Shown piece after piece: positions 9,047-31,495 of a stretch of DNA of 64,000 nucleotides (positions are counted from its first letter, which is position 1; each line of letters opens with the position of its first letter). The notes beneath the pieces were generated by a model, which worked only from the letters and a program-made list of their open reading frames with translations, made no database searches and was not told the origin of the DNA. Made by a program: the position numbers and the translations under genes. This DNA comes from Bryobacteraceae bacterium (GTDB lineage: Bacteria; Acidobacteriota; Terriglobia; Bryobacterales; Bryobacteraceae), in NCBI GenBank assembly GCA_041394885.1, contig JAWKHI010000018.1, positions 48,754-112,753 on the forward strand, written 5' to 3'.

Positions 9047-10204
9047 ATGAATGATCGCCAATCGTGGATGTGGACCCGCCGCAAGCTGCTGACCGCGGCC
9101 GCCTCGCTCGGCTCCCTTCGCGCCCAGACCGCACCGTCTTTCACCGTCGCCGGGAAACGCCCGATGATCCTCCACAACGAGTTTCCCGAGGATCTGGAAG
9201 CACTGCCCGAATATCTCGATACGTGGATCACTCCCTACGATTCGTTCTTCGTGCGGCAGCATCTGCCGCGTCCGAAGGTGGACCCAGGAACGTTCCAGTT
9301 GCAGCTGAGCGGGATGGTCAACCGTCCGGTTTCGATGTCGATCGCCGATCTCCGCAAGCTCCCGCAATACACCGTGCCCGCCACGCTCGAGTGCGCCGGC
9401 AACGGGCGCGGCAACGTCCGTCCCCGCGTACCCGGGCTCCAGTGGACCAAGGGCGCCATCGGCAACGCGGAATGGCGCGGGCCACGCGTGAAGGATGTTC
9501 TCGCCGCCGCTGGAGCCGCCGGGGGAGCCGCTTGGATCAACTGCAACGGCGCCGACAACGGCATGATGAAAACGCCGGACTTCATCCGCTCCATCCCCAT
9601 GCGCAAAGCCCTCCACGAGGCGAGCCTCATCGCGCTCGACATGAACGGGGCGCCGGCGCCGGAACTGCATGGCGGACCCGCGCGGCTCATCGTGCCCGGT
9701 TGGGACGGCGCCAGTTGGGTGAAGTGGGTTTCGAGCATCGAAGTAGCCGCCGAACCGAACAGCGGCTTCTATATGAATCCCGCCTACCGGCAGCCGAAGA
9801 CGCCCGTCGCGCCCGGCGCCGGCGCCAAGCCCGAGGACCTGATCGTGATCGAGGCGATGGCCGTGAAGGCGTTTTTCGCCCGGCCGGCGCAGGGAGCGAA
9901 ACTGCCGCGTGGGCCGGTGAAACTCACCGGCGCGGCCTGGGCAGGCGAAAACCGGGTCACGTCGGTGGAGGTGTCCGCCGATGGCGGGTCCACCTGGAAG
10001 CCCGCGTCCCTGTCGCGCCAGAACTTCCCGTTCGCGTGGCGCACCTGGACTTACGATTGGACGCCGCCGCGCACGGGCTACTTCACACTGTGCTGCCGCG
10101 CTTCCGATTCCGCCGGCCGCATGCAGCCGATCGAAGCTCCGTGGAATCCGTCCGGATACTTGAACAATTCGATCGAGCGGTTGGGCGTGACGGTGGAGGC
10201 CTAA
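9047..10204 (+). CDS. sulfite-oxidase-family molybdopterin oxidoreductase (SorA-like)
   Basis: Twin-arginine leader WTRRKLLTAAASLGSLRA and the Moco-binding Cys motif LECAGNGR. About 385 aa, typical for the family. Confidence 0.8.
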   Translation: MNDRQSWMWTRRKLLTAAASLGSLRAQTAPSFTVAGKRPMILHNEFPEDLEALPEYLDTWITPYDSFFVRQHLPRPKVDPGTFQLQLSGMVNRPVSMSIADLRKLPQYTVPATLECAGNGRGNVRPRVPGLQWTKGAIGNAEWRGPRVKDVLAAAGAAGGAAWINCNGADNGMMKTPDFIRSIPMRKALHEASLIALDMNGAPAPELHGGPARLIVPGWDGASWVKWVSSIEVAAEPNSGFYMNPAYRQPKTPVAPGAGAKPEDLIVIEAMAVKAFFARPAQGAKLPRGPVKLTGAAWAGENRVTSVEVSADGGSTWKPASLSRQNFPFAWRTWTYDWTPPRTGYFTLCCRASDSAGRMQPIEAPWNPSGYLNNSIERLGVTVEA

Positions 10205-10205
10205 G

Positions 10206-10517
10206 ATGACGAGCCTTATATTGAGGTCCGCGATCGCCGGCTTCGTGCTTGCCACGATCGGACTCGCCGCCGACGCGGCTTCGATCGAGAAGGGCCGGGC
10301 AGAAGAAAAACGGTCCTGTCTGGCTTGCCACGGGGCACGCCTGATTCACTCGCAGCGCCTTTCCCGCGCCGTGTGGGGACGCGAGTTGGACAAGATGGCC
10401 CGATGGGGACCCGCGGCCGCAGACCGCGAGGCCCTGCTCGACTATCTGGTGGCCAATTACGGGGACGATAAGCCGGTGCCGGAACCACCCCGCTCCGGCG
10501 ACGGCACAAAGCGCTAA
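10206..10517 (+). CDS. monoheme c-type cytochrome (SorB-like partner)
   Basis: 103-aa ORF with a signal/TM segment and the heme motif CLACHG. Starts 1 nt after the SorA-like stop. Confidence 0.75.
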   Translation: MTSLILRSAIAGFVLATIGLAADAASIEKGRAEEKRSCLACHGARLIHSQRLSRAVWGRELDKMARWGPAAADREALLDYLVANYGDDKPVPEPPRSGDGTKR

Positions 10518-12497: not shown

Positions 12498-12908
12498 TCA
12501 GGCGGTGAGTGTCCGCGGGCTTACCGCGATGTCCGGAAAAGCACGCAGTACGCCCCCGTCGAAGGTGATGAGTGGGCAGCGTTCACGAACGGCGAGTTCG
12601 ACGAAGAGAGTGTCATAGACGGCCACACCGGACTGAACGGAGCGGATGAGGGCGCCTGGGCCGAGAGGAGAGATGCTGGCGGACTCGATGCCCAGGCGCC
12701 GCGCGAGCCGAAGGCGAACCTGACCTTCGTCATGGGAGAAAGCGCCAGTCCGGACGGCCATCCAAACGACGCTGGCCAATTCAGCCTCCCAATGGGCCGG
12801 CGCGATCGGGTTGGAGATGGCGCGCAAAGCCACGCTGGCTACGCCGGCGAACTGCTCGACTCCCAGCAGATGGTACGCCACTACGTTCGTGTCGACGATG
12901 GCTTTCAC
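12498..12908 (-). CDS. vapC: PIN-domain toxin VapC
   Basis: Lies in ORF 12498..12974. The GTG start at 12908 overlaps the antitoxin stop (GTGA). VKAIVDTNVVAYHLLG plus later acidic residues are typical of PIN domains. Confidence 0.8.
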   Translation of the reverse strand: MKAIVDTNVVAYHLLGVEQFAGVASVALRAISNPIAPAHWEAELASVVWMAVRTGAFSHDEGQVRLRLARRLGIESASISPLGPGALIRSVQSGVAVYDTLFVELAVRERCPLITFDGGVLRAFPDIAVSPRTLTA

Positions 12909-13132
12909 GACCGGCCGGCGTTGATCCAGGCGTCGACTTCGGCGGCGGTCGGGCGGCGGGCCTGCTTCGGCCACGAGGCTTCGATCCGATCCAGAATGGA
13001 CTCGCGTTCGGCGGTATGGTCGGCGAGGATGTCCCTCACTTCCTGTTCCATCGAACAGCCATGGCGGCGTGCCAACGCCTTGAGCCGGTTGACGACATCG
13101 GCGGGCACGCCTCTTATGGTCAAATTCGGCAT
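12905..13132 (-). CDS. vapB: ribbon-helix-helix (FitA/Arc-like) antitoxin VapB
   Basis: 75 aa. MPNLTIRGVPADVVNRLKALARRHGCSMEQEVRDIL is the classic RHH antitoxin N-terminus. Coupled by 4 nt to vapC. Confidence 0.8.
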   Translation of the reverse strand: MPNLTIRGVPADVVNRLKALARRHGCSMEQEVRDILADHTAERESILDRIEASWPKQARRPTAAEVDAWINAGRS

Positions 13133-14378: not shown

Positions 14379-14783
14379 TCAACTGGCCGAAAGCACTTCG
14401 AATCCCCGCCCGCCGCGTAGAGCGCGGGCAAACGTCACAGTGGACGCCGCTCCGGCGCGCGCATTGGCTCGTCCGATATAGTAATCCGCAAAGTCACCGC
14501 GGCCGCCGGTCCAGTCCCCGAATGCTTGCCAGACCGTCTCCTTGTCCACGACTTCGAATTGCGCCGTTCGCAAGATACGTTCGATGACGGTGTTGATGTC
14601 GCCCTTGCGGAATCCATAGCAGTCTTCCAATACCCAGATCAGTTCGCAGATCACCACCGGCTGGATCACCAGGCGCACGCCCGACTCAGCCGCTTGCCCG
14701 ATCACCCGATTCGCCTGGGCAGCCTGCCGCGGGTCATCCTGCGTCAGGTACCGGACGAGGACGTTGGTGTCCAGGCCTTTCAC
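14379..14783 (-). CDS. vapC: PIN-domain toxin (VapC family)
   Basis: MKGLDTNVLVRYLTQDD has the canonical PIN N-terminus. 134 aa. Overlaps the upstream antitoxin by 4 nt. Confidence 0.85.
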   Translation of the reverse strand: MKGLDTNVLVRYLTQDDPRQAAQANRVIGQAAESGVRLVIQPVVICELIWVLEDCYGFRKGDINTVIERILRTAQFEVVDKETVWQAFGDWTGGRGDFADYYIGRANARAGAASTVTFARALRGGRGFEVLSAS

Positions 14784-15040
14784 CCCTTCCGTCCACGGGC
14801 CTTCGCGCCCGCCCGCCGCCGGACCGCCTCATGCATCGTCTCCACCGGCACCGCCGCCTGGCCCGAACGCGCAAGCGCTCCCTGCAAGCTACGGACATCC
14901 ACCTTCGCCGGGCGGATCTGCACGTCGCCGCTATCGAGCACCACGAAATCGAGTTGGTCCCCCGGGTGGAGTCCGAGGTGGTCGCGGATCGGCTTTGGGA
15001 TCACCAGTTGGCCCTTCACCGTCAGTGTTGCGGTATGCAT
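14780..15040 (-). CDS. AbrB/MazE/SpoVT-type antitoxin
   Basis: LTVKGQLVIPKPIRDHLGLHPGDQLDFVV is the swapped-hairpin AbrB-fold signature. Confidence 0.8.
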   Translation of the reverse strand: MHTATLTVKGQLVIPKPIRDHLGLHPGDQLDFVVLDSGDVQIRPAKVDVRSLQGALARSGQAAVPVETMHEAVRRRAGAKARGRKG

Positions 15041-15166
15041 CGTCTTACCAATTTTGTATTTTCTTACTTTATCGTATTACATTCGCCTGGCGTTCGGCGA
15101 TCCTCTTCGATCGCTGGCCACCGATCCGACGGCGAATCGCCAGAGAGCTGATAACATTGACTAACT

Positions 15167-17755
15167 ATGTCTTCGGAGCGCGACTCGGTCACGTTACTGC
15201 ACCTGTCCGACACTCAGTTCGGGCGTAACCACCGGTTCGGCAATCTTGGCGTAACTCCTCAGGATGGTGCGTTCGATACCTTGTTCAAGCGGCTGGAAAT
15301 CGATCTGGCGGGGCTGAAGAAAGAGCACGACGTCGTGCCGGAAGCCGTGGTGGTGACCGGCGATCTGGCGGAGTGGGGCCGGACGAGCGAGGTCCAGGAC
15401 GTTCTCGAGTTCCTGGCGCGGCTTTCGGATCCGCTGGGCGTTCCACGGTCGCACGTGGCGATCGTTCCGGGGAACCACGACATCAATCGCGCCAACTGCA
15501 CGGCGTACTTTGCAGAATGCGAGGGCAACGAGACCAAGCCCATGCCGCCCTATTGGCCGAAGTGGAAGCATTACGCGTGGATGTTCGAGGAGTTTTATCG
15601 CGGTGTCGACGGCGTGTCGTTCCGGGAAGGCGAGCCGTGGACGCTTTGGGAGATGCCGGAACTTCGGCTGGTGGTGGCCGGACTGAATTCGACGATGGTG
15701 GAGAGCCATGTTGACGGCACCCACTACGGATGGGCGGGCGAAGCCCAATTGCGGTGGTTCCATGAGCGCATGGACCGGTATGAACGCGCCGCATGGACGC
15801 GGCTGGGGTTGATCCATCACAACGTGCTGCGCAAGGCCGTGGACGACGATGAAAACCTGCACGATGCAGAGAAGCTCGAACAGATACTTGCCCCGTCGCT
15901 CGATCTTCTTCTGCACGGGCACACCCACAACGGCAAGATGGGACGGCTGGACAAGCTCCCGGTGCTGTCCACGGGAAGCACGGCGTTGCAGTCCGGCCAG
16001 CGGCCGGCGGAGGTGCCGAATCAATATCAGTGCCTGCGGCTGTCGGCGGATGGGATCGAGCGTTGGACGCGTGGGTACGATCCGCAGCGGGGCGACTGGA
16101 TCGGCGACAATCGGTCTTCGCGGCGCGGCGGCGAGTGGTTCACGAAAGAGAAGGTAGCGTTTCCGGCGTTTGGGAACTCCAGCGCGCCCGCGCCGCCCAA
16201 GCCGCTGCACGACCCTCGCCGGTACATCCAGGCGCTACTCGAGGAGACCTCCTACATCGACGTGCAGGGGCTGAAGTTCGGCGACAACCGGGCGTATCAA
16301 TTCGCCATCGAGGAGTTCTATATCCCGTTGACGACGTCCGCGGGCAGCGCGCAAACTGGCGACAAGCCGGAAGCATCGCGCGAACGCGAGGTCCCGTTAG
16401 TGGACGCGCTCCGGTCGCATCGCAAGCTGCTGGTGGTGGGCGACCCGGGTTCCGGCAAGAGCACGTTCCTGAAACGAGTGACGCACCAGATGTGCCGCGA
16501 ATATGGCGACGCCGCGCCGCTGCCGGTGGCGATGGGCGCGGCGGCGCTGGCCGGCCATATCGCGCTGCATCATGGGAAAGACGGTCCGGCTGAGCGGTGG
16601 TCCCCGGACTGGATTCCGCTGTACGCGGCAGCGCATTGCGCGGAGCGCAACCGGGGCCTGGACGCGGAATACTTTCGGGAGAGACTGAAGTCCGGCGGCT
16701 GTCACGTGCTGATCGACGGATTGGACGAGACTCCGGACGAAGCGTCGCGCGTGAACATGGCGCACCTGATTCGCGATGCGGCGGCGGCGTTCGACGGGTG
16801 CCGGTTCGTGGTGACGTCGCGCCCGGAGGGGAAGGTGGCGATACGCGGCTTCGAGGAAGCTCTGATCGGGGAGGTGCAGCCGGCGGAAATGCTGGCGTAC
16901 CTCGAGAAACTGGCAAGGCATCTGTACGCCAGCGATCCGGTGAAGGAGACGAGGTTTCGCCAGGATCTGGCGGCGGCCGTGAACGGGCGTCGCGAGATCC
17001 GGAAGATGACGCGGAATCCGGTGATGCTGACGGCGCTGGCGGTGCTGCAACACAACGAAGTGAAGCTGCCGGAGAATCGGGTGGATCTGTACGGGTCCAT
17101 TCTGGAGTGGCTGTCGAAGCAGCGAGCGAGGAAGGACCGTTTGCCGGCCACCGAGTGCCTGTTGCGGCTGCGGGAGTTGGCGCTGGCGATGCAGGATCAT
17201 GAGGACGGCCGCCAGAAGCAGGCGCCGGTGGCCTGGGCGGGCGAGACTCTGGCTCGGCACTTCGGGAATCGCGAAAGGGCGGAGCGGTTCCTGCGCGCCG
17301 AGCAGGCCGATAGCGGGATCGTGGTGAGCCGTGGAACCGACATCGCTTATTGGCACCTGACGTTTCAGGAGTATCTGGCGGCGCTCGAGATTGCGGGATG
17401 GGAGGACGGCGATCAGCACGCGCTCATCCTGGGCGGGGAGCCGGCGGCCAGGGCCGCGCTCCTTAACGCCCCAAAAAATTCCCGCCTGATCCAGCCCCCC
17501 GCATCGCGTCAAACGGCCGGCGTGATAGTCGCCGCACAACTTGCGAAGACGCCGGCGGAAGCGGACTACATTGGCGCGTGCCAGCCGGGCGTGCGTGGGG
17601 AACAGGCGGAATCCGAGGAACGGGAACCCGTCGCAGCAGCGGTAGACACGGCTCTTACCGGGGTGCAGCGTAAGGCGCAACCCGTAAAGGAATTCGCGAT
17701 CCGATCGTGCATGTCGTTGAGTTGCGGCTTGCTATCGGCGAACAGGAGAAGGTGA
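15167..17755 (+). CDS. metallophosphoesterase-NACHT (STAND NTPase) protein; recognisable sequence ends near 17440 and the last ~105 codons of the ORF read antisense through an RT fragment
   Basis: All five calcineurin-like motifs are present: LHLSDTQFG, VTGDLAEWG, VPGNHD, LIHHNVL, LHGHTHNG. Then Walker A VVGDPGSGKST, a Walker B-like HVLIDGLDE and a NACHT-type helical region. Confidence 0.75.
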   Translation: MSSERDSVTLLHLSDTQFGRNHRFGNLGVTPQDGAFDTLFKRLEIDLAGLKKEHDVVPEAVVVTGDLAEWGRTSEVQDVLEFLARLSDPLGVPRSHVAIVPGNHDINRANCTAYFAECEGNETKPMPPYWPKWKHYAWMFEEFYRGVDGVSFREGEPWTLWEMPELRLVVAGLNSTMVESHVDGTHYGWAGEAQLRWFHERMDRYERAAWTRLGLIHHNVLRKAVDDDENLHDAEKLEQILAPSLDLLLHGHTHNGKMGRLDKLPVLSTGSTALQSGQRPAEVPNQYQCLRLSADGIERWTRGYDPQRGDWIGDNRSSRRGGEWFTKEKVAFPAFGNSSAPAPPKPLHDPRRYIQALLEETSYIDVQGLKFGDNRAYQFAIEEFYIPLTTSAGSAQTGDKPEASREREVPLVDALRSHRKLLVVGDPGSGKSTFLKRVTHQMCREYGDAAPLPVAMGAAALAGHIALHHGKDGPAERWSPDWIPLYAAAHCAERNRGLDAEYFRERLKSGGCHVLIDGLDETPDEASRVNMAHLIRDAAAAFDGCRFVVTSRPEGKVAIRGFEEALIGEVQPAEMLAYLEKLARHLYASDPVKETRFRQDLAAAVNGRREIRKMTRNPVMLTALAVLQHNEVKLPENRVDLYGSILEWLSKQRARKDRLPATECLLRLRELALAMQDHEDGRQKQAPVAWAGETLARHFGNRERAERFLRAEQADSGIVVSRGTDIAYWHLTFQEYLAALEIAGWEDGDQHALILGGEPAARAALLNAPKNSRLIQPPASRQTAGVIVAAQLAKTPAEADYIGACQPGVRGEQAESEEREPVAAAVDTALTGVQRKAQPVKEFAIRSCMSLSCGLLSANRRR
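17470..17751 (-). pseudogene. C-terminal fragment of a DGR-type reverse transcriptase (starts just after the YxDD box; one frameshift near 17685)
   Basis: Two frames in the ORF track join as LLLFADSKPQLNDMHDRIANSFTG / LRLTLHPGKSRVYRCCDGFPFLGFRLFPTHARLARANVVRFRRRLRKL. The lower boundary is uncertain (17440-17505). Confidence 0.65.
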
Positions 17756-17790
17756 GTGGGCCCGGGGAATCTCACCCCGAGCCCCTCGCA

Positions 17791-17824
17791 GAACCGTACG
17801 TGAGCGTCTCCGCTCATACGGCTC
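17791..17824 (-). ncRNA. group II intron domain V
   Basis: The minus strand reads GAGCCGTATGAGCG-GAGA-CGCTCACGTACGGTTC. It has the AGC catalytic triad, a 2-nt AC bulge, a GNRA tetraloop and is 34 nt long. Confidence 0.85.
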
Positions 17825-18390
17825 CCATCACAGAACCGCGTCTTTCTCCCATATGCCAGTGCGCCCACAACTTCGGATCGCGTCTCGAGATCGTCGCGAT
17901 CCATTGCGCCGCCCTCCGCATTTGCCGCCTGAGGCTCTTGTACTTCCTTGAGGCCCAGCGCGCCAGCGTTCGGTCCAGTTACTTCATCGCCGGATACAGT
18001 GCCGAGCGGTAATACCGCCCGTAGTATTGGATCCACCCTCGAACCACCGGGTGAACATCCGGGACAGATCGTCCAGATCCTTGTCGCTGCGCAGATGCAG
18101 CTTCCAGCTCCGGATCTCTGCCCGAATCTTCCGGACCGCTTTATCCGACACGGCCGGACTGAAGTTGACGAAGTACTTCCCCTTCCAGTTCTTCGATCTC
18201 CGAGGCCGAAATGTGTACCCCAGAAAATCGAACTTCTCGTGCAGGTATGTCCTTCGCCGGTCATCATCCTTGCAATAGACGATCTTCGTCTTGTCCGGAT
18301 GTAGCTCCAGCCGGCAATCTCGCATCCGCGCTTCCAGTTCTCCCTGCGACGTGTTGGAGAATAACTCCGGCTGGCAGGCATTAGGTACAA
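17814..18390 (-). pseudogene. group II intron-encoded reverse transcriptase/maturase remnant (5'-truncated, one frameshift, one in-frame TAA)
   Basis: RLELHPDKTKIVYCKDDDRRRTYLHEKFDFLGYTFRPR...DLSRMF, then a frame change to NPVVRGWIQYYGRYYRSALYPAMK*LDRTLARWASRKYKSLR...DPKLWAHW. The TAA is at 17979..17981. Confidence 0.8.
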
Positions 18391-18413
18391 TCACGGTTCC
18401 ATAGGAGGCAAAT

Positions 18414-20924
18414 ATGCATCGCCCACACTTCCTGGGGGCCATCTGGCTGCTCTACGCCGGCGCTGCCGCAGCCCAGCCGCCGCTGAACTGCACGGCCCAG
18501 GCCGCGGGGACGCCTCAGATCCGCTCGGAAGGCGTTTCCGAACTCGTCGGCGACATCCTGATCATCTGCAGCAGCGGAAGCCCGGCAGGCCCAGTAGAAC
18601 AACTCCGGTTGCTTGACATCCTAGTGACAACCAGTTCATCGATCGACATCACGGGTCGCATCGGTCCGGATGGCCAACTGACCGAGGCATTGGCGTTCTT
18701 CGACGAGCCAATGCCCAGTCTTCAGCATCCCTGCGGGAGCCCATCCGCTCCCTACTCAATTCCGCCGGGCTCGGGTTCACTGCTACCTGGAGTGTGCGGT
18801 GCTCACGCGGGGTCGCCCTCCGGCAATGGAATCGGCGCCTATGATCCCAGTATCAATGCTCCTATTCTTACGGTTGGCGCCACAACCTATCAGACCCACC
18901 GTGCCAATGCATTTCAGGCTCGCCGTCTCACGAGTAACACGATCGTTTGGAAAAGCGTACCGTTCGACGATCCAGGCATCCTCAGCACCCGCATCATCCG
19001 GTTGACTAACTTGCGCGTCAACGCAAGTCAACTCGGTGTGCCGCTGGGGCAGCAGGCCGTTGTCCAGACGATCATTACCGCGATCCCCAGCACGGGTGGC
19101 CCTGTCCCTGTTACGAATAACGCCCCGACCGTCGCCATCGCCCAGCCGGGTGTGTCATTCGCGGTGGTTGACAAGCCTACCTGTTTGCAGTCAAACCCGG
19201 CCAACGCCGCCTTCGCTGCGTCAGCGGTGAATCCACTGACAGCGCTCGGCAGCCGGTGCGACGGAAGGGCCGCGTTGCTACGCTTCGAGGAATACTTCCC
19301 GTCGGCGTTCAAACGGCGCGCTTGGGACCCGAGCCAGGCCATCGATGTTCCAGGCCAGCCCACCTCACAGGATGTTCTCGGGTATCCCTTCTTCACCGAA
19401 TCCGGCATCTTCAAAGCCGCGACTTCCAGTTTCTGGCCGGCGACCCTGCAAAACGGCCAACCCGCGGCTGGCACGGCGCCCGGCACTCTCGGCTTGGCGG
19501 ATTCGGCAACGCGGCTAGTGGTGCGATTTCAGAACATCCAGAACGGGGTAGCGGTATGGCTGGGTACGAGCGTGCCCATCTACACATCGGCCAGCCCCGC
19601 CGTCCGCACCGGAACCGCGCGCCTCGTCCAGACCGATGCTAACGGCGCGGGCGAGTTCAACGTAATTAGTCCTGGCGCTTCACCGGCCAATTTCCGCACC
19701 GTCTCGAGTGTAACTCCGATCCCGCCAGGCTACGATAATGACGGGCTCCATCGCCTGACAGTCTCCGCCGGGGCAGGCTACGCGGTCTACGAACTGGTGC
19801 ACGCCGATACCACCCAACTGGAACGGGTGGACATCCCGGTGGTGTTTGCCTACGCCTCGAACCCCGGCGCGAACCTGCCCTCGTTCGGCACCGCCACCGT
19901 GAGCGGCGCCCTGGGCCCGGCCAGTGCGATCGCGTCTGCCAGCGCCACCGCTCCGCTGCCGCGCTTTGTCGACAGCGGCGCGGCGGCACCTGTGCTGACC
20001 ATCACCAGTGCGGGCATGCCGTCGCCGCGGCCTCCCTCGCCCACCTCCGGCGCGGGCCTCGCGCAGACGTTCACTTTCCAGTTCGACGATGCCGACGGCG
20101 CGGGCGATCTTTCCGTGCTCAACGTCCTGATCAACAACGCCATCGACGGCCGCCAGTCCTGTTACATCGCCTACGTGCCCTCAGGCCCCGGCACCGGGAC
20201 GATGTTCCTGGTGAATGACGCCGGCGACGCCGGGGGACCGTTCGCGGGCGCGCTCGCGATCCCGAGCACGGCCTCCATCGGCAATTCGCAATGCCAGATT
20301 CACGGCACGGGATCGTCCGCGTCCTTCTCAGGCGCGCGGCTCGCGCTCGCTTTGAACGTCACCTTCGCCGGAACCTACGCTGGCCGCCGAATCGTGTATC
20401 AAGCCGCGCGAGACCGGGCGGGCAACAACTCGGGATGGGTGGCCAAAGGAGTCTGGACGGTTCCCGGCGCAGCGCCCACTTCTCCGCGTGTCGACGCATC
20501 CACGCCGCCGCGCACCGAGGCGTCGACGTTCACGCTGACGACGACTTTCACCGACGACGATGGCTTCGCGGATTTGGGCGTGCTGAACATCCTAGTGAAC
20601 AATGCCGTCGATGGGCGACAGGCCTGCTACGCCGCGTTCGTGCGGTCTGCCAACACGCTCGTGCTGGTCAACGACGCCGGTGACGCCGGAGGACCGTTCG
20701 CGGGGTCGATCGCCATCCCGGGCGGATCGAACGCGTCCAACAGCCAATGCCGGATTGACGCGAGCGGGTCCGTGGTGGGGAGCGCCGGAAAATCCATTTT
20801 CCTGACGCTTCGCTTCACTTTCTTCGCGCCGTTCCGCGGCGACCGGATCGTTTACGCGGCGGCCCGGGATACGGTTGAGAACTCCTCCGGTTGGCAGGCC
20901 ATCGGGACGGTGACGGTTCCCTAG
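18414..20924 (+). CDS. large secreted hypothetical protein with two tandem ~133-aa C-terminal domains
   Basis: 836-aa ORF with GGAGG 7 nt upstream and the signal peptide FLGAIWLLYAGAAAAQ. Internal repeats at 20067..20465 and 20526..20921. Confidence 0.75.
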   Translation: MHRPHFLGAIWLLYAGAAAAQPPLNCTAQAAGTPQIRSEGVSELVGDILIICSSGSPAGPVEQLRLLDILVTTSSSIDITGRIGPDGQLTEALAFFDEPMPSLQHPCGSPSAPYSIPPGSGSLLPGVCGAHAGSPSGNGIGAYDPSINAPILTVGATTYQTHRANAFQARRLTSNTIVWKSVPFDDPGILSTRIIRLTNLRVNASQLGVPLGQQAVVQTIITAIPSTGGPVPVTNNAPTVAIAQPGVSFAVVDKPTCLQSNPANAAFAASAVNPLTALGSRCDGRAALLRFEEYFPSAFKRRAWDPSQAIDVPGQPTSQDVLGYPFFTESGIFKAATSSFWPATLQNGQPAAGTAPGTLGLADSATRLVVRFQNIQNGVAVWLGTSVPIYTSASPAVRTGTARLVQTDANGAGEFNVISPGASPANFRTVSSVTPIPPGYDNDGLHRLTVSAGAGYAVYELVHADTTQLERVDIPVVFAYASNPGANLPSFGTATVSGALGPASAIASASATAPLPRFVDSGAAAPVLTITSAGMPSPRPPSPTSGAGLAQTFTFQFDDADGAGDLSVLNVLINNAIDGRQSCYIAYVPSGPGTGTMFLVNDAGDAGGPFAGALAIPSTASIGNSQCQIHGTGSSASFSGARLALALNVTFAGTYAGRRIVYQAARDRAGNNSGWVAKGVWTVPGAAPTSPRVDASTPPRTEASTFTLTTTFTDDDGFADLGVLNILVNNAVDGRQACYAAFVRSANTLVLVNDAGDAGGPFAGSIAIPGGSNASNSQCRIDASGSVVGSAGKSIFLTLRFTFFAPFRGDRIVYAAARDTVENSSGWQAIGTVTVP

Positions 20925-28774: not shown

Positions 28775-29113
28775 ATGGACCTCTCCGTCGGCGACAAGCT
28801 CGGCCATACGAGATCACCGGCCTGCTCGGCAAGGGCGGGATGGGCGAGGTGTATCGCGCCACAGACACGCGGCTCCACCGCGACGTCGCGGTTAGAGTCT
28901 CCAGCGAACGGTTCAACGACCGGTTCGAGCGCGAGGCGCGGGCAGTAGCGGCGCTGAACCATCCGCACATTTGCGCCATTTACGGCATTCGGCCCCAACT
29001 ATCTCGTGATGGAGTTAGTGGAAGGCGAGACGCTCTCGGCGCGGATCAAACAAGGGGCAATCCCACTGGACGAGGCGCTGGGAATCGCACGGCAGATCGC
29101 CGAGGCGCTCGAG
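28775..29113 (+). pseudogene. Ser/Thr protein kinase, N-terminal fragment with two frameshifts; truncated before the catalytic loop
   Basis: MDLSVGDKLGH / YEITGLLGKGGMGEVYRATDTRLHRDVAVRV...ALNHPHICAIYG / LVMELVEGETLSARIKQGAIPLDEALGIARQIAEALE. The fragment ends at the shared CTCGAG (29108..29113). Confidence 0.7.
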
Positions 29114-29230
29114 GTTGGCGAGAAACGCGACGTCCACGCGGCGGCGCTTGGCCTTTGCGGCGGCGAGGGCGGCGTCCAGCAGGTTCTGCCAGGCGATAAC
29201 CTCCGGCCACAGATTGCCGACCCGCTTCAT
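29108..29230 (-). pseudogene. DGR-type reverse transcriptase, N-terminal 41 codons only
   Basis: MKRVGNLWPEVIAWQNLLDAALAAAKAKRRRVDVAFLANLE, preceded by GGAGAGG. It lies inside composite ORF 29015..29608. Confidence 0.65.
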
Positions 29231-29566
29231 TTCCTCTCCCGCGCGGCCTTGCGCCAGCCACCGGTGTGCAGCCATTCGTCGGGTGCTGGCCGCGAATTCG
29301 TAGGCGTCGGCGCCGATCAATTTCAGGTCCTTGGAGAGCCGGACCAGAAAGCGGATACGGTTGACGTTGCGGACGGCATGCGTGAGCGGTTCCGCGTTGC
29401 GCGATTCATAGCTGGCGTCGACGAGGTTGGTGAGCAGATCGAGCGAGTGCTGGACGAGGTTCTGGCCTACTGAGAAACGGTGCGATTTTGGGAATTTTTC
29501 GACTTTGGGCAGGATCCATACCGTCCAGTCCTGGGCTCGTTGGACCACCAGCGTTGGTTCGGCCAT
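29231..29566 (-). CDS. avd: Avd-like four-helix-bundle protein (DGR accessory variability determinant)
   Basis: MAEPTLVVQRAQDWTVWILPKVEKFPKSHRFSVGQNLVQHSLDLLTNLVDASY...IRFLVRLSKDLKLIGADAYEF. 112 codons with the characteristic FPK..R(F/Y) pattern. No stop codon before the RT ATG. Confidence 0.7.
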
Positions 29567-29595
29567 GGCTCTGTATGGTACTCGCAAATTTTCCG

Positions 29596-29620
29596 GCAAA
29601 GGGGGCAAGCCCCTATTTGC
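29596..29620 (-). other. GC-rich hairpin between the VR-bearing gene and avd
   Basis: The minus strand reads GCAAA-TA-GGGG-CTTG-CCCC-C-TTTGC: a 5-bp and a 4-bp stem with a tetraloop, 74 nt past the target stop. Confidence 0.5.
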
Positions 29621-29693
29621 AATCCCCGCCGGTTTCTCCGATCCCCAGCAGGCGTGTCTTCAGGGGTAGAGGGTAAAGAAAAAGAATAAAAAC

Positions 29694-31330
29694 TCAACGG
29701 AATTCCCCGGCGCATCGGAACCCAGGGATTGAAACTCGGTTCTCCGGTAGATTCTCGTTCGGGACGACGCGCGGACGTACAGGATTGGTGACCCAGGAGC
29801 CCCCGCGCAACACACGCCTCTTCCCGCTTTCTGGGGGCCCTTCCGGATCTGTTTGTTTCCCTGAGGAATATGGTCCGTGCCAATCCCATACCCATTCCCA
29901 GACGTTCCCCAACGTGTCATACGGCCCCATTGATTCGGCTCTTTCTGCTTCACAGGGTGCGTTGTGTTCCCGATTTTCTCTAGAGTCGCAACGTACTCAC
30001 CGGATTTCTCCCGCCACAACTTCTCCTGTATCCAGCCGCTCACGTCCACTGTTGTTCCCATACCACGCGATCTCGTCTAGCGCCCCATAGCGAGCCCCGT
30101 CGTCCCAGCCCGCGCCGCATACTCCCACTCCGCTTCCGTCGGCAGCCGACCGCCTACCTTCTTGCAATACTGCGCAGCCTCCTCCCAACTCACCCGCTCC
30201 ACGGGATTCGCCCCTACCTTTGAAATGGCTCGGATTCTGCCCCATCACCCGCTCCGCCTCCTGCGTCACAGGCGTTTCCCCGATCAAAAGCCACGGCTGA
30301 TCGTCACCTCTTGGCGAGGCTTTTCGTTATCCCACCGCTTCCTTGTCGCCCTCAGGCGCCCATCAGGAACGTTCCCGGCGGAATCCAGATGTACACTGGG
30401 CCGTCCAACGGGTTCATCCACTTGTCCCCAGCGAGGCGTACTGTACCTGACTTGCGCACTTCCAACGCGGCGCGCAAAGGTTCACCGTGGTCCGCAGCGT
30501 GTTGTTTCCGGGCTGATCGCTTACGGCAAGCCAGGGAGGTCTTGCATTCTGTCCACGCGCCGGGCCCAAACCACCAGACCACCTTCCGCTGGTTAGCCTG
30601 TTGGGAAGTAATCGAGGCGAGGCTCTCGCCCAGTTCGAGCAGCACCATCTGTTCGAGATCCCCATAGTTGGGATAGGCGGCCAACAGCGCTGCTATCAGT
30701 TGCTTCAACTCCTTGCCATCGCGCATTCCCGCTCGCGTCGCGAGCCGTGGAGCAGCCCCTCCGGCCTCATCGCCTCCCAGGACCGCAGCGGTGTCTTCTG
30801 GTGGAGGGGCCGGCGTAGGGGCGGGCGGAGTGTGGACGCGGCGAATCGCGGCCTTCACGTCACGGGCGAGGCTCTCGATGCGCTTCTTGCCTTCGACGGG
30901 ATAGGACTCGTAGTGACGGTAGTCCTCCCAACTGGTGTATTGGCGCTCGCGCAGAAACGCGCCGAGTTGATCGCTCTCGCCGGTAATTTCGTCGGGGGTG
31001 ATCCAGATGACGGCGAGAATCAAGTCGCTGCGTCCCATCCGGAGTTCTCTTTCCCGGAATCGTTCCAATTCGCGGACGCATTCGCGACTCTGGAAGAAGC
31101 TGGGAGAAAGGATCGCGATGAGGAAGGTGACCGAGTCCAGAGACTGGTCTATGCGCTGTTTCCAATTTTCGCCCCACTTCAGTTCGGCCCGGTCCTGAAA
31201 AACCTCGAATACGCTTGCCGATCTGCTGGCGGATTTCCCGTTGGAGGCGTTCGACAAAGCGCGTGACTTCGCCTTCGGCGTCGTCGGCGTGGGCGTAGCT
31301 GAGGAAGGCTCCGGCGTCAGATGGCGGCAT
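29694..31330 (-). pseudogene. TIR - EAD1 - FGE-sulfatase(C-type lectin fold) protein, putative DGR target, with about ten frame changes
   Basis: Pieces appear in six ORF-track entries. TIR: FLSYAHADDAEGE...FQDRAELKWGENW...FLIAILSPSFFQSRECVRELE. EAD1: LKQLIAALLAAYPNYGDLEQMVLLELGESL...PGNNTLR. FGE: [56 protein letters not shown]...GFRCA. Confidence 0.75.
29709..29816 (-). repeat. candidate DGR variable region (VR)
   Basis: The last ~36 codons read RVLRGGSW-VTNPVRPRVVPNENLPENRVSIP-GFRCA. This is the position where FGE-type DGR targets carry their Asn-codon-templated variable scaffold. No TR partner was located. Confidence 0.45.
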
Positions 31331-31495
31331 GAGCAGAAAGTAGCCAAGCGTGTGGCTGGGCAGATCGGGATTCGCGAGATTCAGGTTACGACACAGACAT
31401 ATGTTGAAAATGTTATCGTAACCCCGGTTTGCGCAGCGTTCTCAGGCCGCTACTGTGCCAACCGCTTGCACGGGCTCGCGGCTCGGCTGGGTGAA

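Follow-up and report, generated by a model that had tools for sequence, protein, structure and literature searches.

The stretch of DNA analysed here, referred to as the window, comprises 64,000 nucleotides of a contig from a Bryobacteraceae bacterium (GenBank assembly GCA_041394885.1, contig JAWKHI010000018.1, positions 48,754 to 112,753 of the forward strand), and positions are counted from its first letter. At 15167-17755 it carries an open reading frame (ORF) that encodes a metallophosphoesterase joined to a NACHT-type NTPase. This ORF is the 5' two-thirds of the target gene of a diversity-generating retroelement (DGR), a gene of the 'diversified sensor' class resembling NOD-like receptors (NLRs). 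With a probability of roughly 0.85, we consider it to be a recent relic of such a DGR-diversified NLR-like sensor. The gene is composed of the following parts.

15167-17755, plus strand: metallophosphoesterase-NACHT ORF, 862 aa
15167..17446, plus strand: conserved part of the gene (aa 1-760), with the metallophosphoesterase effector, a linker and the NACHT module made of nucleotide-binding domain (NBD), helical domain and winged helix
15191..15931, plus strand: calcineurin-like metallophosphoesterase domain, aa 9-255, Pfam PF00149
16427..16876, plus strand: NACHT P-loop NTPase domain, aa 421-570, Pfam PF05729
17447..17755, plus strand: tail outside the family, 102 codons and the stop, an antisense read-through of a reverse transcriptase (RT) remnant, with a predicted local distance difference test (pLDDT) below 50

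Both domains score above the curated Pfam thresholds, with 46.2 bits against a cut-off of 21.5 for PF00149 and 31.2 bits against a cut-off of 26.7 for PF05729. The five calcineurin-like phosphoesterase motifs that an initial annotation had read from the letters alone are represented by D15/Q17, G65-D66, G102-N103-H104, H217-H218 and G251-H252/H254, and these residues are invariant in 17 family members. The same is true of the Walker A (GDPGSGKST, aa 425-433) and Walker B (LIDGLDE, aa 515-521) motifs. In every family member motif I is D-x-Q, not D-x-H.

When the whole protein was compared by sequence with solved structures, nothing came up at E ≤ 0.01, and a fold search was thus needed. An AlphaFold2 model of the ORF product, built on 17 homologues, is confident for aa 1-744, with pLDDT values below 50 at aa 745-822 and 825-862. 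In a Foldseek comparison with the Protein Data Bank, the best fold matches of the NTPase module, which is confident in the model over aa 350-744, are NOD2 (5irm, E 1.9e-11), NLRP3 and NLRC4, and the module has the NBD, helical domain and winged-helix fold of NLRs. Pfam and fold both give NACHT, so that the P-loop does not lie outside the clade of STAND (signal transduction ATPases with numerous domains) and NACHT proteins; the NTPase module classifies as NACHT. Profile and structure checks of residues 1-760, which the initial annotation had recommended, thereby bear out its domain reading. Its label 'NLR-related or Avs-type' stood in the first half only. The Avs-type half is unsupported because PADLOC, the type of defence classifier it had suggested, gave weak partial matches only, with no Avs or bNACHT model matched.

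The closest folds of the N-terminal domain are Rv0805 (TM 0.70), GpdQ, Lmo2642 and SMPDL3B, with TM scores normalised to the target and spanning 0.64-0.70 for Rv0805 and GpdQ. Judged by the model, the N-terminal enzyme would most resemble cyclic-nucleotide phosphodiesterases and glycerophosphodiesterases. The probable substrate of this predicted phosphodiesterase is a nucleotide-type phosphodiester.

The ten closest homologues are 1057-1119 aa long, share 57-62% identity with the window protein in the full alignment and up to 68% in local BLASTP, and cover the query region almost completely. Metallophos, NACHT and FGE-sulfatase domains are found in 10/10 of them. In the BLASTP alignment with the nearest homologue, P0004, query aa 1-760 correspond to P0004 aa 1-762 with 68% identity and no match beyond, and P0004 extends for another 352 residues that form a helical spacer and then an FGE-sulfatase domain at aa 896-1053. 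Because all ten closest homologues run past aa 760 into the FGE-sulfatase domain, we conclude that the window gene is truncated; none of the ten ends at the same point. Family homology ceases at about aa 760 (nt ~17446) and DNA homology at 17440, in agreement with the position near 17440 at which recognisable sequence had been reported to stop. After aa 760 no family homology is found, and a C-terminal ligand-sensing domain is thus missing from the window copy, as the initial annotation had held: the C-type-lectin/FGE fold with its variable repeat, present in 10/10 closest homologues, is absent. The ORF continues instead antisense through RT sequence, and its stop codon (17753-17755) falls within the last bases of a group II intron remnant.

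The cognate diversity-generating retroelement

Five homologue loci were fetched and examined (L001, which encodes P0004, and L003, L017, L018 and L019). In 5/5 of them the last ~116 nt of the FGE domain recur as a direct repeat 241-278 bp downstream. When the two copies are compared, 65/70 mismatches over the five loci are located at adenines of the downstream copy, a placement that is diagnostic for the variable and template repeats of a DGR. The stretch that forms the variable repeat is the least conserved part of the homologue proteins. In three of the five loci (L001, L017 and L018) a convergent DGR RT lies on the opposite strand directly past the template repeat; in L001 and L018 it has an annotated bAvd as its neighbour. 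Judged by these relatives, the lost end of the window gene is an FGE-type DGR-diversified sensor, which the initial annotation had offered as a speculation. The homologues form a coherent clade, acidobacterial by homologue source names, in which a metallophosphoesterase-NACHT-lectin gene is followed by the template repeat and faced from the other side by RT and Avd. Among 80 more distant NACHT relatives, an FGE domain lies downstream in 64 and a DGR-type RT within 5 kb in 12. Several of the homologue loci adjoin toxin-antitoxin-like or defence-like genes.

It should be mentioned that some of the homologue loci show alterations of their own. L003 has a variable/template repeat pair (10125-10485) but no RT, and 3/15 of its mismatches are at bases other than adenine, as expected for drift after RT loss. 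L019 also has a repeat pair (9167-9534), with the RT reduced to a 24-residue stub. At L001 (10150-10345) the variable repeat of P0004 is longer than the template repeat by one base, and the annotated C-terminus is consequently out of frame and without the family ending LGFRLA. Either the 1-nt indel is a genuine frameshift, or it arose as a consensus artefact when this hypervariable region was assembled.

In the window, the end of the conserved gene part is followed by these features.

17441..17516: deletion junction interval, 76 bp in place of ~1.57 kb of L001
17504..17751, minus strand: cognate DGR RT remnant, consisting of aa 232-249, a frameshift and aa 250-314 of a 356-aa RT
17752..18345, minus strand: 3' part of a group II intron, with the maturase C-terminal region of its encoded RT, in which there are frame breaks, and domains V-VI
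18349..18404, plus strand: last 18 codons and stop of a lost paralogue of the gene at 18414-20924, by local alignment to 20871-20924; second breakpoint

The RT remnant starts at the codon right after YVDD, with RT aa 232-249 at 17751..17699 and, beyond the one frameshift, RT aa 250-314 at 17698..17504, all on the minus strand. It matches the RT of L001 (P0123) with 80% amino acid identity over 65 aa (tblastn, E 9e-29), and its DNA is 79% identical to L001 and 78% identical to a contig of a same-genus genome (G001:C479). By DNA comparison, window 15148-17440 matches L001 6982-9280 and window 17517-17748 matches L001 10853-11085. The L001 stretch that is absent here holds the last third of the target gene with the variable repeat, the template repeat and the 3' end of the RT. 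Since the remnant is L001-like and occupies the same convergent position as the RT of the relatives, the 'retroelement debris' of the initial annotation is the gene's own DGR. Its view of a sensor end replaced by such debris thus holds for the loss and fails for a foreign replacement: through a deletion, the gene became joined to the 3' part of the convergent RT of its own DGR.

A tblastn search of the 7.4-Mb assembly with P0004 recovered no copy of the lost sensor part, the best FGE match, at 42% amino acid identity, being unrelated; nor was any template-like repeat found across the assembly. Recombination between variable and template repeat was considered as the cause of the deletion and rejected. 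The two repeats are only ~240-280 bp apart at the very end of the gene, whereas the deletion begins ~1 kb ahead of the stop codon and extends into the RT. Sequence errors may underlie the one frameshift of the RT remnant as well as the frame breaks of the intron ORF; the large structural changes are of a different nature.

The intron, the other half of the reverse transcriptase and the surroundings

Group II domains V-VI are recognised at 17751-17826 on the minus strand (Rfam RF00029, 60 bits), and window 17749-18345 has 93% DNA identity to a full-length intron in the same-genus genome G001 (G001:C976, L015 ~1028-2838). The last letters of the intron are ...CAC, at 17752, and RT coding sequence then continues from the codon after YVDD.

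With the L001 RT as query, tblastn placed the other half of the RT on a different contig of this genome, C39 (G000:C39:10944-12890; L100 6945-8890). The order on C39 is bAvd, RT aa 1-231 ending in ...YARYVDD, and then directly the 5' ~850 nt of the intron (L100 6945-7797, minus strand). The RT piece is 68% identical to P0123; the intron piece matches RF01999 with 104.8 bits and shares 93% identity with the G001 intron. Some 418 nt from the middle of the intron are present on neither contig. Compared with the L001 RT, the RT piece on C39 also has an insertion of ~25 aa. When the whole genome was searched with PF00078, no RT exceeded the cut-off, which is a false negative for the C39 piece; scanned directly, this N-terminal piece scores 35.4 bits against a cut-off of 29.6. 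The assembly yielded no full-length RT, of whatever kind. The linked DGR RT and Avd are present as pieces only, RT aa 232-314 beside the gene and Avd with RT aa 1-231 on C39, with the split group II intron as the interruption.

On C39 the break in the intron abuts a truncated receptor-like gene, of which the N-terminal CarboxypepD_reg/Plug part is left; in the window the break adjoins the end of the lost paralogue listed above. The outer flanks of the two halves map to a single contig of the congener G002, ~190 kb apart, and their inner neighbours map to two other contigs. This pattern fits a rearrangement, the form of which is not proven. Neither congener, G001 or G002, has a close orthologue or synteny across the locus, and the segment lies at a synteny break. 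The gene at 18414-20924 (plus strand) encodes an 836-aa secreted protein without a Pfam match. Its C-terminal ~300 aa, a tandem domain, recur in many paralogues of the genome, with arrays on contigs C3 and C8.

In two unrelated RT genes, this intron lineage occupies the position immediately behind the YxDD codons: after YVDD in the DGR RT of the window, and after YADD in another group-II-type RT ORF of G001, where it forms a twintron. The 3' exons at both sites begin with CTT. The shared placement and exon start suggest that this lineage homes to the conserved coding sequence of the RT active site. For mobile elements, twintrons at conserved sites have been described (PMC2882425); no literature report was found of a DGR RT as target of such introns.

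On the other side of the gene, and further into the window, are the following.

15041..15166: divergent AT-rich spacer, 126 bp
14780-15040, minus strand: MazE/AbrB-type antitoxin (Pfam MazE_antitoxin, 2.1e-9), divergent from the NLR-like gene
14379-14783, minus strand: PIN toxin of the MazE/AbrB pair (Pfam PIN, 4e-7)
12905-13132, minus strand: FitA-like ribbon-helix-helix (RHH) antitoxin of a second VapBC-type module (Pfam FitA-like_RHH, 1.8e-16)
12498-12974, minus strand: PIN toxin of the second VapBC-type module (Pfam PIN, 6.7e-6)
29100-31347, minus strand: second decayed DGR, with bAvd, an RT N-terminus and a frame-broken TIR-EAD1-FGE target

The AbrB/PIN pair, its divergent orientation and the second VapBC module had all been described in the initial annotation, and the Pfam matches agree with it. 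The spacer has a GC content of 47.6%, compared with 63.4% for the window, and presumably holds promoters; DNA homology to L001 begins inside it, at 15148. In all, two VapBC-type modules lie within 2.7 kb upstream of the NLR-like gene. The remaining neighbours are housekeeping genes, e.g. cytochrome b/c, a hydrolase and a choice-of-anchor protein.

The second DGR has left an Avd/RT-N-terminus remnant at ~29.1-29.5 kb. Its Avd is only 32-36% identical to the Avd proteins of L001 and L018, which are 81% identical to each other. From these sequence relationships the remnant belongs to a different DGR. The window therefore contains the remains of two unrelated DGR cassettes, and the targets of the two carry different effectors.

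Loss of the cassette and state of the surviving protein

From the arrangement that the closest relatives have kept, the ancestral cassette is proposed to have consisted of a target gene encoding metallophosphoesterase, NACHT module, helical spacer and FGE/C-type-lectin domain with the variable repeat, followed by the template repeat and by RT and then Avd in convergent orientation. In such an intact system, the RT would copy the template-repeat RNA with errors at adenines, and the copy would be written into the variable repeat. In the relatives, the sequence signatures show this adenine-directed rewriting by Avd-RT, which alters the ligand-binding face of the lectin domain. From family knowledge (PMC10907252, PMC7159879, PMC13092281), the diversified lectin domain would bind a non-self ligand and the NACHT module would oligomerise, and the oligomer would switch on the N-terminal phosphodiesterase.

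In the genome studied here the cassette is dead, most likely through three changes: (a) a group II intron entered the RT directly after the YVDD codons, in sense orientation; (b) a rearrangement inside the intron carried Avd, the first 231 aa of the RT and the 5' segment of the intron off to what is now contig C39; (c) a deletion of ~1.5 kb took the sensor third, the template repeat and the 3' end of the RT, with codon ~760 becoming fused to antisense RT sequence. No diversifying part is left in working form. In the protein that remains, the catalytic and NTPase motifs are intact and the sensor is gone; as judged from its sequence, it is neither diversifiable nor ligand-gated any longer. We regard it as rather improbable that this stump retains some activity.

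A remnant of the same cassette in the same genus, at G001:C479 (L014, 806-1972), has decayed independently and further. What is left there is a phosphoesterase N-terminus with a frameshift, an inverted piece of 62 bp and an RT C-terminal half with intact YVDD and no intron. The existence of this further-decayed remnant indicates that decay of the cassette is recurrent.

Several observations weigh against calling the window copy a recent relic. It has retained 760 codons without a frameshift or stop. Over aa 1-760 it shows 20 private changes at 303 sites that are invariant in ten other close homologues, and intact homologues on equally long branches show 20-21 at 303-304 sites. There is thus no excess of change at conserved sites, and the case for a 'relic' is made by what has been lost and not by any visible decay. 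Where the 16 other sequences all agree, the window protein has two conservative changes (L202M and F578Y), compared with 0-2 in each of the ten closest homologues. In addition, the three changes (a), (b) and (c) carry no time order, and the exact breakpoint of the deletion is uncertain: 17448-17503 aligns weakly to the RT 3' end, for which reason the breakpoint is placed somewhere within 17441-17516. The equal rate of change fits either a recent deletion or a stump still under constraint, two cases that these data do not separate.

The equal rate of change, the 760 open codons and the presence of all catalytic and Walker residues would also be expected if the truncated, sensor-less protein were still expressed and kept by selection, perhaps as a phosphodiesterase that is constitutive or regulated in some other way, or in partnership with other NACHT-FGE proteins of the genome; the same-genus remnant in G001, by contrast, is clearly frameshifted. 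We consider such retention unlikely. A recent deletion would yield the same picture as selection, and the tail of 102 residues is antisense-derived and of low model confidence. In eukaryotic NLRs the C-terminal domains gate the NTPase, and their loss usually leads to an inert or unregulated protein. The autoinhibited structure of NLRC4 (4kxf) is among the Foldseek matches. Quite doubtful, in our view, is the particular form in which the protein was selected after loss of the DGR, for instance as a nucleotide phosphodiesterase without regulation or under a different one, or as a helper co-oligomerising with the other NACHT-FGE proteins of the genome. If selection does keep the sensor-less protein, the locus would be a natural case of an NLR re-used after deletion of its sensor.

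Two further explanations concern the junctions themselves. Hypervariable repeats assemble poorly, and the variable repeat of the nearest homologue has a 1-nt indel, so a mis-join or collapse could be suspected, with gene, template repeat and RT all intact in the real genome. We judge this very improbable, since collapse of variable and template repeat would lose ~250 bp, not ~1.5 kb from the middle of the gene into the RT. Moreover, both ends of the intron break join other truncated genes inside long contigs, not at contig ends, and the missing pieces leave no trace in an assembly scored 100% complete. The idea that the RT C-terminal fragment at 17.5 kb and the Avd/RT N-terminus at ~29.1-29.5 kb are one RT split by 11 kb of ordinary genes draws on their being on the same strand and in the correct order. 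It is hardly credible and was rejected, given the identity levels of the Avd proteins and the location of the true half on C39. The 29-kb Avd is too distant from the L001 and L018 proteins, and the 17.5-kb RT fragment is 78-80% identical to the RTs of these loci. On C39, the matching half stops with YVDD, and the 5' part of the intron found in the window follows at once. We thus keep to our description of the ORF as a recent relic of a DGR-diversified sensor.

Comparison with known systems

The locus displays the piecewise death of a bacterial targeted-hypermutation immune-sensor cassette, by intron, splitting of the RT, and deletion of sensor and template. Intact members of the clade are found, for example, at the L017 and L018 loci, and the window copy brings no new mechanism.

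In the eukaryotic NLRs NOD2, NLRP3 and NLRC4, the NBD, helical domain and winged helix are arranged as in the window protein, and the effector-NTPase-sensor logic is shared. Unlike these and the bacterial NACHT/Avs proteins, the family has as its sensor a DGR-written lectin fold, not leucine-rich or tetratricopeptide repeats (LRR/TPR), and this sensor is absent in the window copy. The N-terminal domain has the same dimetal motif set as the class III cyclic-nucleotide phosphodiesterase Rv0805 and the glycerophosphodiesterase GpdQ, its closest folds. It differs from both in the D-x-Q form of motif I in place of D-x-H and in its fusion to an NTPase switch.

Putative antigen sensors in which a NACHT/STAND module is joined to a DGR-diversified C-type lectin were predicted earlier (Kaur et al. 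2020, eLife, PMC7159879), and DGR targets with NACHT and C-type-lectin domains, one of them also with PF00149, have been described (Dore et al. 2024, PNAS, PMC10907252). The ORF is a decayed member of this known class. The family shares with it the N-terminal effector, the central NACHT, the C-terminal FGE/C-type-lectin domain with the variable repeat and the adjacent Avd-RT, as well as the adenine-specific signature of variable and template repeat in the relatives. The window copy departs from the class in having lost lectin domain, variable repeat and template repeat and in its broken RT. The clade as a whole differs in being acidobacterial, by the source names of the homologues, and in its convergent target/RT layout with a single target, and no vWA-MoxR ternary system is linked to it in the loci examined.

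Another relative in architecture is DS-8, a single-protein metallophosphatase-NACHT system that is experimentally anti-phage and requires both domains (DefensePredictor, Science 2026, PMC13092281). The window protein has the same order of an N-terminal calcineurin-like metallophosphatase and then NACHT. However, it reaches only 38.7 bits with the NCBIfam DS-8 equivalog, for which the cut-off is 790, in a match limited to aa 60-110. It is closer to the DS-9A anti-phage phosphoesterase model (NCBIfam DS9_1), which matches partially at aa 7-268 (E 3.8e-29, 101.9 bits against a cut-off of 420). Both scores are far below the cut-offs, and the protein is a member of neither equivalog family. DS-8 also differs in that it is not reported as a DGR target in PMC13092281. 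In the clade to which the window gene belongs, two recent themes meet: NACHT sensors that are written by DGRs, and anti-phage proteins of the metallophosphatase-NACHT type, of which DS-8 is an example.

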